Shown: positions 3,379 to 57,050 of the stretch, one piece after another
How positions within the stretch are numbered: position 1 is the first letter of the stretch
How the letters are laid out: every line of letters starts with the position of its first letter
Source of the DNA: Verrucomicrobia bacterium ADurb.Bin018
GTDB lineage: Bacteria > Verrucomicrobiota > Kiritimatiellia > CAIQIC01 > Lenti-01
Assembly (NCBI GenBank): GCA_002071335.1
Contig: MWEZ01000002.1
Span: forward strand, 1 to 57,050
DNA: 57,050 nt
Direction: 5' to 3'
Notes under the pieces: model-generated
Told to the model about the DNA's origin: nothing
What the model saw: the letters and a program-made list of their open reading frames with translations, nothing else
Database searches by the model: none
Made by a program: the position numbers and the translations under genes

Positions 3379-4206
3379 ATGGTGAGGCGCATGAGTTTCC
3401 AGTACGAATCCTATCCGCCGCGCGCCACGGGCTTCTTCGACCGTCTGCCACCGGTTTGCGCGTGGCTGATCAAAGTCAACGTGGCTGTCGCGCTGGTTTT
3501 CTTTTTGCTGCCGGGGTTGCGCAATCTGGAAACGCTCTTGGCGCTCTCGCGCGCCGGCCTGCGCCACGGCTATCTCTGGCAACCGGTCACCTATATGTTT
3601 TTGCATGGCGGCTTCACCCATCTGCTCTTTAACATGTTCACGCTTTATTTTCTGGGCCCGGAAACCGAGCGCGCCATGGGCTCCAAGCATTTTCTGGCCA
3701 TGTATCTCATCAGCGGCGTGCTTGGCGGCCTTGGCTGGCTTTGGCTCATGCCCATCCCGTGGGCGGAATGCGTCGGCGCATCTGGCGCCATCTTCGGCGT
3801 GCTCGCCGCGTTCGCCACGCTTTATCCGCGTCGCCAGCTCACCCTCCTGATCTTTTTTATTTTTCCAGTCACCATGATGGCCTGGCAACTGGTCGCGGGC
3901 CTGGCCTTGATTGAGTTCATTCTGGCTAACAACGACAACTCCGGCGTGGCCCATACCGCACACTTGGCCGGTGCGTTCGCGGGATTCCTCTATATTGACC
4001 AGCTTTTCGAGAATGCCCACCTGCGCCGCCTTTGGGCCCGCCTGCGCGATTACGTCGCCCAGCGCCCCCACACTCCCCGCGCTGGCCCCCCGCCCCCCGA
4101 CCAAGCCGAAGTGGGCCGCATCCTCGACAAAATCTCCGCCCAAGGCATCCAATCGCTGACCAAGGCCGAGCGCCAAACCCTGCACCGCGCTTCCCGCACG
4201 TTTTAG
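3379..4206 (+). CDS. rhomboid family intramembrane serine protease
   Basis: Polytopic membrane protein with the catalytic GASGAIFG (GxSG) motif and the downstream HTAHLAGAFAGF His motif. Confidence 0.85.
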   Translation: MVRRMSFQYESYPPRATGFFDRLPPVCAWLIKVNVAVALVFFLLPGLRNLETLLALSRAGLRHGYLWQPVTYMFLHGGFTHLLFNMFTLYFLGPETERAMGSKHFLAMYLISGVLGGLGWLWLMPIPWAECVGASGAIFGVLAAFATLYPRRQLTLLIFFIFPVTMMAWQLVAGLALIEFILANNDNSGVAHTAHLAGAFAGFLYIDQLFENAHLRRLWARLRDYVAQRPHTPRAGPPPPDQAEVGRILDKISAQGIQSLTKAERQTLHRASRTF

Positions 4207-4293
4207 GCGCCGCCACCGCGCGTCGACGACCTCTTTCTTGCACTTTGCCCCCTCGTGGAGCATATTCCCTCCACTTGAAAAACGGAGCCCCTC

Positions 4294-5955
4294 ATGACCC
4301 TCAAACTTGAAAAACGCGCCAACTACACCCCGCCCAAAGGGCCGGTCGTCCTCATCATCATGGATGGCGTCGGCATTGGCAAATACACGGAGGGCGACTT
4401 TGTCCGCGCCGCCTGGAAACCCAATCTCGACTGGCTAATGGCCAACTGCCCCCACACCACGCTCAAAGCCCACGGCCGGGCCGTCGGCATGCCGACGGAC
4501 GAAGACATGGGCAACTCCGAAATCGGCCACAACGCCATCGGCTGCGGCCGTGTGTATGATCAGGGCGCCTCGCTCGTCGCCAAAGCCGTCACCTCTGGGT
4601 CCCTCTTTGCCGGCGCGACCTGGCGCAACATGATTGCCAACGTCAAAGAGCACAACTCCACGCTGCACTTCATCGGCCTATTTTCCGATGGCAACGTCCA
4701 CGCGCACATTGACCACCTCAAAGGGATGCTCGGGCAGGCCAAGCAGGAAGGCGTCAAACGCGCCCGCATCCATCCACTGCTGGACGGCCGGGATGTCCCG
4801 CCCACCTCCGCGCTCGATTACATTATCCCCTTCGAGGAATTTCTCGCCGGCCTCAATGCCGATGGCACCGTGGACTATGCCATTGCCTCCGGCGGCGGCC
4901 GCATGAAGGTCACCATGGACCGCTACGAAGCCGACTGGCGCATCGTGGAACGCGGCTGGAAAACCCACGTCCTCGGCCAAGGCACGCTCTACCCCTCCGC
5001 GCAGGCGGCCATCGAAGCCCTGCGTCGCGAAAACCCCGGCATCCTCGACCAAGACCTCCCGCCGTTTGTCATCGGCAAGGATGGCCAGCCCATCGGCCCC
5101 ATCGAGGACAACGACTCCGTCATCCTCTACAACTTCCGCGGCGACCGCGCCATCGAGCTGACCCGCGCGTTTGAGGAAGACGACTTCGCGCACTTCGACC
5201 GCCAGCGCCGCCCCAAGGTGCTCTTTGCCGGCATGATGCAGTACGATGGCGACGCCAACATCCCGAAATCGTTTCTCGTCGAGCCCCCGCGCATCACCCG
5301 CACCATGGGCGAATATCTCGCCGACACCGGCGTCCGCCAGCTCGCCATCAGCGAGACGCAAAAATTCGGCCACGTCACCTACTTCTTCAACGGCAACCGC
5401 GCCGAAAAATTCAGCGAAGAACTCGAGGACTACGTCGAAGTCCCCTCCGACCGCGTCCCCTTCGAGCAGCGCCCGTGGATGAAGGCCGCTGAAATCACCG
5501 ACAACGTCATCGAGGCCATGAACTCCGGCAAGTACCGCTTCATCCGCGTCAACTTTGCCAACGGCGACATGGTCGGTCACACCGGCGTTTTCCCCGCCGT
5601 GCAAATCGCCGTGGAAACCGTGGACCTCTGCCTGGGCCGCCTGATTCCCGCCGCCCAGGCCGCCGGCGCCATCCTCGTCATCAGCGCCGACCACGGCAAC
5701 TCCGACGACATGTACGAGCACGCCAAAGATGGTTCTGTCATCAAGGACAAAGCCACTGGCCGGCCCAAGGCCCGCACCGCGCACTCTTTAAACCCCGTAC
5801 CCGCCATCATCTACGACCCCAGCAACGCCGCCGGCGTCAAACTGACGGACAAAAAAGGCTTGGGCATCTCGTCGCTCGCCGCCACCTGCCTCAACCTCAT
5901 CGGTTACCAGACTCCGGAAGGCTACGACCCTTCGCTCCTCGAAATCGGCAGCTAG
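4294..5955 (+). CDS. gpmI: 2,3-bisphosphoglycerate-independent phosphoglycerate mutase
   Basis: 553 aa. Typical iPGM N-terminus (VVLIIMDGVGIG) and metal/phosphoserine motifs (GNSEIGH, ADHGNSD). Confidence 0.95.
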   Translation: MTLKLEKRANYTPPKGPVVLIIMDGVGIGKYTEGDFVRAAWKPNLDWLMANCPHTTLKAHGRAVGMPTDEDMGNSEIGHNAIGCGRVYDQGASLVAKAVTSGSLFAGATWRNMIANVKEHNSTLHFIGLFSDGNVHAHIDHLKGMLGQAKQEGVKRARIHPLLDGRDVPPTSALDYIIPFEEFLAGLNADGTVDYAIASGGGRMKVTMDRYEADWRIVERGWKTHVLGQGTLYPSAQAAIEALRRENPGILDQDLPPFVIGKDGQPIGPIEDNDSVILYNFRGDRAIELTRAFEEDDFAHFDRQRRPKVLFAGMMQYDGDANIPKSFLVEPPRITRTMGEYLADTGVRQLAISETQKFGHVTYFFNGNRAEKFSEELEDYVEVPSDRVPFEQRPWMKAAEITDNVIEAMNSGKYRFIRVNFANGDMVGHTGVFPAVQIAVETVDLCLGRLIPAAQAAGAILVISADHGNSDDMYEHAKDGSVIKDKATGRPKARTAHSLNPVPAIIYDPSNAAGVKLTDKKGLGISSLAATCLNLIGYQTPEGYDPSLLEIGS

Positions 5956-5986
5956 CCCCCCCATGCGGCAACGCGCGGCCCATCCC

Positions 5987-6174
5987 TTTTCCATGGCGTG
6001 GAAAAAATATTTCCACACTGTGGAAAAATCGGTCCAAAGTTGTTCCATTGTGTGGAAAAATCGCCAAAACTTTTTCCATTGCGTGGAAAAATCGCCAAAA
6101 CTTTTTCCATTGCGTGGAAAAATATCACCCCATTTTTCCACACTGTGGAAAAAAGATTTCCACACTGTGGAAAA
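5987..6174. repeat. array 1 of palindromic repeats (7 units, core TTCCA-N5-TGGAA; best units TTTTCCACACTGTGGAAAA)
   Basis: Cores at 5989-6003, 6011-6025, 6043-6057, 6074-6088, 6105-6119, 6136-6150 and 6158-6172. Centre spacings are 22, 32, 31, 31, 31 and 22 bp. The array includes a tandem copy of a ~31-bp unit (6057-6121). Confidence 0.9.
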
Positions 6175-6477
6175 GTGCGAGGCCCGCCCGTGAGCTGGCT
6201 GACGGACACCCCCGCCGGCGCGGTGCTGACCCTGCGCATTGTGCCGCGCGCCGCCAAAAACGCCATCGTGGGCGAACATGGCGACGCCCTCAAAATCCGC
6301 CTTTGCGCCCCGCCCGTGGATGGTGCCGCCAACGCCGCGCTAATTGAGTTTCTGGCCGACGCCCTCGCCCTCCCGCGCGCGCGCATCCAAATCCTTTCCG
6401 GCGCCACCTCGCGCCATAAGCGGGTTCTCCTTGCCCAAGCGCCCGCTGCCGCTATCCGCTCTCAACTCCAACCCTGA
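6175..6477 (+). CDS. DUF167/YggU-family protein
   Basis: The C-terminal ~95 aa ([44 protein letters not shown]...[14 protein letters not shown]) match the YggU/UPF0235 pattern. The track ORF start (5998) lies inside the repeat array, so the start was moved to the in-frame GTG at 6175 (alternative GTG at 6190). Confidence 0.7.
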
Positions 6478-22829: not shown

Positions 22830-22934
22830 TTTTTCCACACTGTGGAAAACATATTTCCATGCTGTGGAATAAATTACGCTTTAGGTACCCAATTTTTCCA
22901 CACTGTGGAAAACTTATTTCCACGCCGTGGAAAA
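22830..22934. repeat. array 2 of the TTCCA-N5-TGGAA palindrome family (4 units)
   Basis: Cores at 22833-22847, 22855-22869, 22896-22910 and 22918-22932. Centre spacings are 22, 41 and 22 bp. The array lies in the convergent gap between the AKR gene and waaA. Confidence 0.9.
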
Positions 22935-22992: not shown

Positions 22993-23036
22993 TTCACTTA
23001 TTGCAATATGTGAATTCACTTATTGTAATAAGTGAA
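22993..23036. repeat. two abutting 22-bp AT-rich palindromes TTCAC-N12-GTGAA
   Basis: TTCACTTATTGCAATATGTGAA (22993-23014, near-perfect) and TTCACTTATTGTAATAAGTGAA (23015-23036, perfect 10-bp arms). They also read as two direct 16-mers TTCACTTATTG(C/T)AATA. They sit in a strikingly AT-rich ~60 bp stretch. Confidence 0.85.
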
Positions 23037-56552: not shown

Positions 56553-56564
56553 GCCGGTCCACAC

Positions 56565-56662
56565 GATCCGCTGTCCCTACGCTGGAATGATCCAACAGGT
56601 TCCAAGGGTTATCCGGCCAACCGGAACTCTCAGCCCTCTCCATCGAGGACACCCCTAGCGAC
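56565..56662 (-). promoter_or_regulatory. TPP (THI-box) riboswitch aptamer
   Basis: The minus strand reads CTAGGGGTGTCC...GGCTGAGAG...ACCCTTGGAACCTGTTGGATCATTCCAGCGTAGGGA. This contains the conserved CUGAGA and ACCCUU-GAACCUG-...-GCGUAGGGA elements. Confidence 0.9.
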
Positions 56663-56684
56663 CACATTTTTTAGTCAACGACAG

Positions 56685-56712
56685 ACCATACCACCCATGC
56701 CACCCGCGTCAA
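56685..56712 (-). promoter_or_regulatory. candidate promoter of the thi operon (TTGACG-16 nt-TATGGT)
   Basis: On the plus strand the -35 is at 56707-56712 and the -10 at 56685-56690. It lies ~25 nt upstream of the riboswitch and 10 bp from array 3. Confidence 0.45.
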
Positions 56713-56721
56713 GCCCGGCCC

Positions 56722-56930
56722 TTTTCCACACTGTGGAAAAAAGTTTATCCCACGCAGGCGGGATTTTCCACACCGTGGAAAAATCCACCGCCACGCGCCC
56801 ATTTTTTCCACACCGTGGAAAAAAGTTTTCCACGCTATGGAAAAACCAGGTCAAATTGTTCCACACAATGGAAAAACTTTCGGCGGATTTTCCACACAAT
56901 GGAAGAACTTTGCGGATATTTTTCCACAGA
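56722..56930. repeat. array 3 of the TTCCA-N5-TGGAA palindrome family (6 full units, 1 degenerate, 1 half-site)
   Basis: Cores at 56724-56738, 56766-56780, 56806-56820, 56828-56842, 56859-56873 and 56890-56904. A degenerate unit TTTATCCCACGCAGGCGGGATTTT lies at ~56745-56768 and a half-site TTTTTCCACAGA at ~56919-56930. Centre spacings are 42, 40, 22, 31 and 31 bp (and 32 to the half-site). Confidence 0.9.
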
Positions 56931-56951
56931 TAGGATGAGAAGGCAAAAGAG

Positions 56952-57025
56952 GATCGGTTTCCTTTGGGCGTTGATTTAAACACCTATCTCAAACGCACTC
57001 ATCAGGTGCAGAAAGGAAACCGATC
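56952..57025 (+). promoter_or_regulatory. 14-bp perfect inverted repeat whose 3' arm contains a Shine-Dalgarno-like AAAGGAAAC just before a GTG at 57026
   Basis: GATCGGTTTCCTTT (56952-65) pairs with AAAGGAAACCGATC (57012-25), with a 46-nt loop. An ORF (GTG AAG ATA CGT...) then runs off the window. Confidence 0.35.
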
Positions 57026-57050
57026 GTGAAGATACGTAACACAGTTGGAA

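Follow-up and report, generated by a model that had tools for sequence, protein, structure and literature searches.

A Dispersed Mosaic Family of Palindromic Repeat Arrays in Uncultured Bacteria, with Arms Perhaps Read by a Conserved Protein

Three Arrays of One Palindromic Unit

The stretch of DNA analyzed here, 57,050 nucleotides of Verrucomicrobia bacterium ADurb.Bin018 (contig MWEZ01000002.1, positions 1–57,050 of the forward strand; hereafter the window), carries three arrays of a 19-bp palindrome, which we describe as members of a dispersed mosaic repeat family whose arms are probably read by a conserved sequence-specific protein. The core of the unit, TTCCA-N5-TGGAA, occurs exactly 17 times in the window, against 0.03 occurrences expected from 100 dinucleotide-preserving shuffles (the largest count in any shuffle was 1), and a scan of the whole window gave zero exact matches outside the three arrays. 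The 17 cores bear out the three-array family proposed in an initial annotation of this DNA, made from the sequence alone, and the steps between cores reported there were reproduced exactly.

Array 1 (5987–6174) lies, as that annotation had it, between gpmI (4294–5955) and yggU, a gene of the DUF167/YggU family (6190–6477). It comprises seven units (5987–6005, 6009–6027, 6041–6059, 6072–6090, 6103–6121, 6134–6152, and 6156–6174), with cores at 5989, 6011, 6043, 6074, 6105, 6136, and 6158 and thus steps of 22, 32, 31, 31, 31, and 22 bp; a doublet is followed by three polar 31-bp units (TTCCATTGYGTGGAA with the spacer AAATCGSCNAAASTTT) and then by a second doublet. At the intergenic position matching array 1, an array is also present in three other loci (L108, L085, and L036), and in five further assemblies of the window's own species the length of array 1 is unchanged; it is therefore not hypervariable over short time scales within this species. 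In L129 (1924–2403) and L130 (1889–2119), which cover the array 1 region, YggU has been called 64 residues longer through the array, or a 76-residue open reading frame (ORF) has been called across it; as the family profile has no match before the end of the array, these are annotation artifacts, caused by a palindrome free of stop codons.

Array 2 (22831–22934) consists of four units (22831–22849, 22853–22871, 22894–22912, and 22916–22934), with cores at 22833, 22855, 22896, and 22918 and steps of 22, 41, and 22 bp, that is, two 22-bp doublets 41 bp apart. It is flanked by convergent genes encoding an aldo-keto-reductase/Fe-S protein (plus strand) and waaA (minus strand). Two adjacent AT-rich palindromes of the form TTCAC-N12-GTGAA (22994–23036, the second being TTCACTTATTGTAATAAGTGAA) follow shortly downstream of the 3' end of waaA, at a distance of 60 bp from array 2. 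They have no relation to the family described here, whose commonest half-site is TTTTCCACA, and could be an operator or a bidirectional terminator.

Array 3 (56722–56929) holds six full units (56722–56740, 56764–56782, 56804–56822, 56826–56844, 56857–56875, and 56888–56906), with cores at 56724, 56766, 56806, 56828, 56859, and 56890 and steps of 42, 40, 22, 31, and 31 bp. A seventh unit had been counted; the step of 32 bp that leads to it stands, but only its left half is present (TTTTCCACAG, 56920–56929), because an IS110-family element starting at 56930 cuts the unit at its center. The polar units of this array (TTCCACACAATGGAA) run opposite to those of array 1, and its 42-bp module, which is also found in L003 and L117, contains a GC-rich small inverted repeat (ATCCCACGCAGGCGGGAT, 56747–56764). 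Array 3 is located upstream of a thiamine pyrophosphate (TPP) riboswitch that precedes the minus-strand cytX-thiM-thiE-thiD operon; the riboswitch (56556–56666, minus strand) scores 58.7 bits, above the gathering score.

Anatomy of Units and Modules

A position matrix of 258 units describes the unit as TTTTCCA-YRSYR-TGGAAAA. Because the search pattern itself prescribes TTCCA, these five positions are invariant by design; the outer T/A positions lie outside the pattern and are conserved to 93–96%. The center base is always C or G, and positions ±2 vary only by transitions, with the pairs C-G in 143 units, C-A in 51, T-G in 57, and T-A in 7.

Units are combined into modules whose sequences and linkers recur across different genomes. 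The 22-bp doublet is made of near-perfect palindromes with the center CACTG or CAGTG, joined by 3-nt linkers of the AAG/CTT type. The 31-bp polar unit consists of TTTTCCATTGYGTGGAAAA or TTTTCCATAGCGTGGAAAA and a semi-conserved 12-bp spacer (AAWNSSSNRAAASTT), arranged head to tail; its centers are TTGYG or TAGCG, or their reverse complements, and neighboring copies are often identical. A third module of 40–42 bp holds either the GC-rich small inverted repeat (in the window, L003, and L117) or the lead-in CCCCATTTT. A single polarity was seen in 54 arrays versus 5 that are mixed, and the ortholog of array 1 in L108 has its polar units in the inverse orientation.

In the metagenome-assembled genome (MAG) CAZMOR01, many arrays are bracketed by inverted terminal copies of ATGCGGGGAATCGCGGCTCA, and inverted copies of CCCCCATGCGGGGAATCGCGGCTCA bracket arrays in a layout resembling BOX repeats or MITEs (miniature inverted-repeat transposable elements; L072, 177–203 and 355–381; also L062, L063, L045, L058, L028, and L108). 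The CCCCCATGCGGGGAATCGCGGCTCA bracket motif is also found alone, and the window keeps only a degenerate left copy, CCCCCATGCGG(G)GAATCGCGGCTCA, on the plus strand to the left of array 1 (5956–5979). A rare variant half-site, TTTTACGTA, was observed in L023 (5172–5190), L071 (~2033–2051), and L103 (~6416–6434), in one case forming a full palindrome with compensation (TTTTACGTACTACGTAAAA) and in two cases combined with a normal half into a chimera (TTTTACGTAGCGTGGAAAA).

Distribution beyond the Window

A scan for the exact palindrome TTTTCCACANTGTGGAAAA in one genome per GTDB species returned at least 111 loci. Approximately 75 of these derive from 21 MAGs labeled Verrucomicrobiota, Kiritimatiellia, Lentisphaerae, or Opitutia, and these bear arrays; among the matches listed, arrays are present in at least 21 species-representative MAGs with a label of the Planctomycetes–Verrucomicrobia–Chlamydiae (PVC) group, and every non-PVC match (Clostridia, Saprospiraceae, Acidobacteriota, Leptotrichia, and others) consists of one palindrome only. 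Over the same listed loci, 157 of the 168 neighboring pairs no more than 120 bp apart have a step of 22 bp (n = 80) or 30–31 bp (n = 77), with steps of 20, 32, 33, 40, 42, 51, 52, 62, and 104 bp occurring once or twice each (n = 2 in all for 40–42 bp and n = 4 for 51–52 bp). The flat distribution that would have spoken against the initial annotation was therefore not seen, the histogram being as sharply peaked in other species as it is in the window.

With three arrays in a window of 57 kb and at least 12–17 loci per MAG, the family has the copy number, as it has the palindromic unit, of repetitive extragenic palindromes (REPs). Gene context was assigned by a codon-phase GC test, which is approximate: 34 confident cases comprise 11 arrays between convergent, 20 between tandem, and 3 between divergent genes, and 31 of these 34 arrays border at least one gene 3' end. 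Tabulating intergenic against genic positions, as had been suggested, placed ~91% of 78 arrays outside genes and seven (~9%) in frame inside intact genes.

Viral contigs searched for the palindrome yielded six single matches and no arrays. Searches with Rfam, run at gathering thresholds on the whole window and in E-value mode on 56650–57050, returned only tRNAs and the TPP riboswitch and nothing on the arrays. A protein search with a synthetic array-encoded peptide matched five short hypothetical ORFs, the word index probably being limiting. The searchable literature, queried for the motif strings and for Kiritimatiellota repeats, yielded no description of this repeat family, and the dispersed mosaic family is apparently undescribed there.

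Arrays inside Protein-Coding Genes

The seven arrays inside genes are found in an NTP-transferase (NTP_transferase; L106 and L027 at a shared site, with array spans of 93 and 186 bp), a dihydroorotase-like amidohydrolase (L006 and L057 at a shared site, with a 93-bp array span in a 99-bp insert and a 41-bp span in a 48-bp insert, respectively), TilS (L023, ~45 bp), and a large membrane protein (L019 and L093 at a shared site, 93 and 156 bp). Five of the seven spans (93, 93, 93, 156, and 186 bp) are multiples of three, the ORF stays open through all seven, and Pfam domains are complete on either side of the inserts. Within genes, a 22-30-22 arrangement (93 bp) replaces 22-31-22 and the reading frame is kept; none of the frames of the 19-mer contains a stop codon.

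The dihydroorotase-like enzyme offers the richest comparison, with ~80 clusters at 55–100% identity to the L006 protein recovered in a protein search. All but two of these clusters carry array-encoded peptides directly after HAEDExx, in inserts of 15 to ~70 residues of which the commonest reads FFHxVEKxFPxCGK; the conserved residues of these peptides correspond to the palindrome arms and the variable residues to centers and linkers. The insert is almost lost in P0064 and decayed in P0080, and in outgroups, at ~45% identity, a short native loop takes its place. ORFs with recurrent FHTVEK peptides had been set aside in the initial annotation as artifacts of translation, which holds for the window but not for these relatives, where the arrays are truly translated as in-frame inserts of conserved proteins. 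Further in-frame inserts, for example GRANRPGEPxLxExRLGRDASPYP or GRHGGRPSMEGRAPSRPD, stand beside the array peptides in P0031, P0069, P0075, P0018, P0057, and P0078; they have the look of a different repeat that is nested within the array and translated with it.

At the DNA level we compared four orthologs of this enzyme (L006, L057, L133, and L134). Nucleotide identity in the flanks is 55–74% and third-position identity 37–57%, and every TTCCA-N5-TGGAA core and every 22-bp step is intact in all four. The arms use A/T-ending codons in genes whose G+C content at third codon positions is 0.68–0.74. Three orthologs translate the motif as FSTVWK..., whereas the fourth has FFHTVEK.... As the arms are intact while the frame of translation differs, the conserved object inside the genes is the nucleic-acid sequence and not the peptide. 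The insert of L057 is shifted in register by one base relative to L133 and L134; together with the inversion of polar units in L108, this shows that arrays turn over at a fixed site.

Folding of the Units and Constraint on Their Sequence

A single unit folds into a hairpin whose stem has 8 bp and whose loop has 3 nt (−6.9 kcal/mol for RNA, −5.6 for DNA), and the earlier argument that the central spacer is too small for a hairpin loop is thereby set aside; the two units of a doublet fold together into a single long hairpin (−21 kcal/mol for RNA, −14.5 for DNA). The variable positions nevertheless show no pair-preserving covariation, since at ±2 the double change to T-A is depleted (7 observed vs. 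14 expected), single changes being common. Complementarity between the two centers within a doublet is not enriched (reverse complement in 5 cases, identical in 11, and other in 69). When sites at the expected 22- and 31-bp positions were searched, only ~10 degenerate candidates, mostly at array edges, were found beside the 258 units with perfect arms. A check of the polar units for strand bias, again one that the initial annotation had proposed, showed none, either relative to flanking transcription (5:5) or relative to local GC skew (Fisher p = 0.57).

Insertion Sequences at Unit Centers

The right end of the window (56930–57050, plus strand) is the left end of an IS110-family insertion sequence (IS), with a non-coding leader followed by a recombinase gene whose GTG start lies at ~57026. 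Metagenome contigs carrying the thiD of the window all end within ~7 bp of position 57050, and three contigs that span the window end show an IS110-family element (DEDD_Tnp_IS110 and Transposase_20); the window and the contigs stop here because this element is inserted. Its junctions, TTTTCCAC-AG|ATAGGATGAG on the left and CTCATAAG-AG|TGTGGAAAAG on the right, place it at the exact center of a CAGTG-type unit (TTTTCCAC-AG-TGTGGAAAA), with AG at both junctions. The element, of ~1.45 kb (window 56930–57050; L117 2498–3955; L119; L118), is found in no fewer than two arrays. It targets the palindromic unit but does not itself belong to the repeat family, and a relative of 68% identity in L060 has an unrelated target. 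Its structured non-coding leader could be a candidate bridge RNA, the means by which IS110-family elements target REPs in Escherichia coli and Pseudomonas (PMC11208160, PMC12288879). In L117 (492–2212), a DDE-type transposase gene (DDE_Tnp_1/DDE_Tnp_1_6) with inverted ends GTGGTGGCACCGACAAAAG lies between two truncated units, and therefore a second IS family also lands inside units.

Relation to Known Palindromic Elements

The REPs and bacterial interspersed mosaic elements (BIMEs) of Enterobacteria and Pseudomonas are alike in that short palindromic units and fixed linkers make up mosaic clusters, in which the number of units varies, in being mostly extragenic and at gene 3' ends, and in serving as targets for IS110-family insertion (PMC11208160, PMC12288879). 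The REP/BIME-like label of the initial annotation holds as an analogy of kind, but these are not canonical REPs: the units lack a GTAG/CGTC head, the only gene found that resembles a REP-associated tyrosine transposase (RAYT; ~125 sequences searched) bears other repeats, the arms are essentially invariant, and the arrays are found in frame in genes and are retained at orthologous sites.

Rickettsia palindromic elements (RPEs) are palindromic repeats inserted in frame in conserved protein genes and kept as extra peptide segments, and are single elements of ~100–150 bp from unrelated sequence families in an alphaproteobacterial genus. The in-frame inserts described above, which are likewise retained in orthologs of conserved genes, resemble RPEs by analogy only: here, arrays of 19-bp palindromes occur in another host clade, and DNA rather than peptide is conserved. 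The BOX repeats of Streptococcus pneumoniae and MITE-like repeats share a modular build with variable internal tandem units, and the arrays of CAZMOR01, bracketed by an inverted 20–25-bp motif, come close to them. The brackets are, however, missing in most genomes including the window, the internal units are perfect palindromes, and neither a target-site duplication nor a mobilizing transposase was identified for the array family.

Palindromic sites at two- or three-turn spacing are also known from oligomeric repressors, with NrdR boxes lying 31–32 bp and ARG boxes 21 bp apart from center to center. Such operators form one or two pairs in the promoters of a defined regulon, whereas the arrays described here have up to seven units, share no functional theme among their genes, and keep away from divergent promoter regions (3 of 34).

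Alternative Readings of the Arrays

The perfect unit can be written as two convergent consensus DnaA boxes 1 bp apart, and the arrays would then titrate or regulate the initiator in the manner of E. coli datA or of the DnaA-box clusters of Bacillus, which like those at oriC are clustered and intergenic, but would here be mobile and present in many copies. The half-site TTTTCCACA agrees with the consensus TTWTNCACA and is counted among the better E. coli boxes (PMC5835720); it is also the box used for cyanobacteria, and 15 of its 17 exact copies in the window fall in arrays. A chance match to the consensus is improbable (~28 of 262,144 9-mers lie within one mismatch of TTATCCACA), and DnaA is conserved enough to account for an unchanging motif. 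In the complete genome of Leptotrichia rugosa, moreover, one 19-bp palindrome lies ~90 bp after dnaA (L059, 1456–1474), as a convergent double box in the presumptive oriC, and therefore such an arrangement exists at a presumptive origin. The pattern of conservation points elsewhere: box positions 8 (C) and 9 (A), which DnaA requires, are the least conserved, at only 75% and 64% against 93–100% for TTTTCCA, one half of the 31-bp polar units reads TTTTCCATT or TTTTCCATA, and a unit of the deeply conserved in-gene doublet of L134 has no consensus box in either half (CTTTCCATA / GTTTCCATA) while its TTCCA arms are intact. The units are also strictly palindromic, and a genome carries tens of arrays. 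For the PVC arrays there was no sign of a link to dnaA or oriC: their fetched stretches of up to 8 kb contain no dnaA or dnaN (a small sample, and hence a weak argument), and when all loci were searched by tblastn with the DnaA and DnaN of E. coli, the Leptotrichia locus was the only match. On balance we regard DnaA-box arrays as unlikely. We think equally little of an action as RNA or single-stranded DNA hairpins, serving stability, processing, or termination as proposed for many REPs. The folding energies and the bordering of gene 3' ends speak for it, but the arms are invariant, the variable positions have no compensatory pattern, the doublet centers are not complementary, the polar units are indifferent to the direction of transcription, and no Rfam family was matched in the searches described above. 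Nor do the units resemble intrinsic terminators, as no U-tract follows a GC-rich stem, the stem ends in A-U pairs, the 3' end of the arm reads AAAA, and the units are symmetric. The preference of the initial annotation for a protein over simple RNA hairpins is thus favored, on account of arms that are invariant without compensation and kept at saturated synonymous sites and across frames, and of polar units without orientation bias.

Poorer still are the prospects of a canonical REP/BIME family mobilized by a RAYT. Short palindromes in mosaic and mostly extragenic clusters, targeted by an IS110-family element, would suit such a family, and the array-bearing MAG of L012 does encode a RAYT-like protein (NCBIfam REP_Tyr_transpos, E = 1.2e-17, below the curated cut-off). 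Most REPs are tagged by a GTAG or CGTC head (PMC3733652), which is not in the units, whose flanks are A/T-rich in the 258-unit matrix. The RAYT-like ORF of L012 (3899–4540) was the sole and weak match of a tblastn search with E. coli RayT in ~125 sequences including the window, and it is flanked by classical GTAG-headed GTAGGGGCTCAGCTTGCTGAGCCC palindromes, not by TTTTCCACA units. Moreover, the arms are perfect at fixed sites while synonymous sites are near saturation, a kind of retention that to our knowledge is not typical of REPs. The L012 region (3876–4724), with its RAYT-like gene and the GTAG-headed palindromes GTAGGGGCTCAGCTTGCTGAGCCC and GTAGGGGCCGAGCTTGCTCGGACC, represents a second, classical REP family in the clade. 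The least probable account is that of sequences akin to DNA uptake sequences or uptake signal sequences, kept by biased uptake and recombination and not by local function. The motif is over-represented clade-wide and kept at synonymous sites and in genes, with few decayed copies, and genes of the type II secretion/type IV pilus type are present in the window. Known uptake sequences, however, are single 9–12-mers or inverted pairs at about one per kb, whereas this family forms arrays of 2–7 units with fixed steps of 22 and 31 bp at about one per 20–60 kb. CRISPR arrays were considered and rejected, as successive units are separated by semi-conserved stretches of 3 or 12 bp, compared with the unique spacers of ~26–70 bp that separate identical repeats, beside cas genes, in CRISPR loci; a sub-threshold Rfam CRISPR-DR match falls on the GC-rich small inverted repeat only.

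A Putative Reader of the Palindrome Arms

The reading that we prefer, and to which we assign a probability of about 0.6 on substantial but indirect evidence, is that of a dispersed mosaic repeat family of the BIME/BOX/RPE kind, the arms of which would be recognized by a putative conserved sequence-specific protein. That the family lives like a mobile or expanding repeat is clear from its insertion into coding sequence, tandem duplication, terminal brackets in one genome, preference for 3' ends, and sharp edges. Three accounts without such a reader were rejected: a structure-only element would be expected to show compensated drift, a purely neutral old insertion to decay, and a selfish family homogenized only by gene conversion to drift in consensus between species. 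Since none of these is seen, a protein that reads the sequence is the simplest explanation.

In the simplest form of this proposal, a symmetric dimer would contact the two TTCCA half-sites, whose centers are 10 bp apart. Steps of 22 and 31 bp, or approximately two and three helical turns, would place successive dimers, together with the A5/T5 tracts, on one face of the helix, which may favor cooperative binding and/or bent DNA. Insertion would account for the spread of the arrays, tandem duplication for changes in their length, and recombination among copies for their turnover, and the putative reader would be either a mobilizing enzyme, with the family as a selfish element, or a host chromosomal protein.

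Several points weigh against this proposal. As the loci were found through perfect 19-mers, the sample is biased toward intact units, and the number of loci per genome, perhaps tens to a couple of hundred, is a rough estimate only. The strict spacing could be a by-product of modular duplication and not of selection for helical phase, because identical 31-bp units adjoin each other and in-gene arrays switch to 30 bp; strict phasing, which the initial annotation had put forward for a protein arrayed on one face of the helix, is for this reason no proof of it by itself, since fixed modules copied in tandem could explain the spacing. Invariance of the arms could in principle be kept by gene conversion (concerted evolution) instead of selection at each site, and the register shift between L057 and L133/L134 is itself a case of turnover at a fixed site. 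Given the stable hairpins, the reader might also be one of RNA or single-stranded DNA that recognizes structure as well as sequence.

A more specific version of the preferred reading, in which the arrays would serve throughout the genome as helically phased landing pads for a conserved DNA-binding protein of the host chromosome (a nucleoid-organizing protein, a segregation factor, or DnaA), we put forward only tentatively and consider rather doubtful, though less so than any of the alternatives weighed above. If true, it would mean that self-spreading protein-binding sites are preserved base for base inside coding sequence, in any frame.

Dispersed palindromic repeats are usually regarded as fast-evolving, species-specific selfish DNA. 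In this family, the ten arm bases and the 22- and 31-bp steps are unchanged across at least 21 species, and at one site in the dihydroorotase-like enzyme, over ~80 ortholog clusters, the repeat is kept while its synonymous neighbors are near saturation and the encoded peptide shifts frame. The arrays also have practical effects: metagenome assemblies break at them, gene calling goes astray, and IS110 (bridge-RNA) elements are drawn to them. The pattern as a whole would be the computational signature of a genome-wide reader of DNA sequence in an uncultured clade that is common in anaerobic digesters and wastewater.

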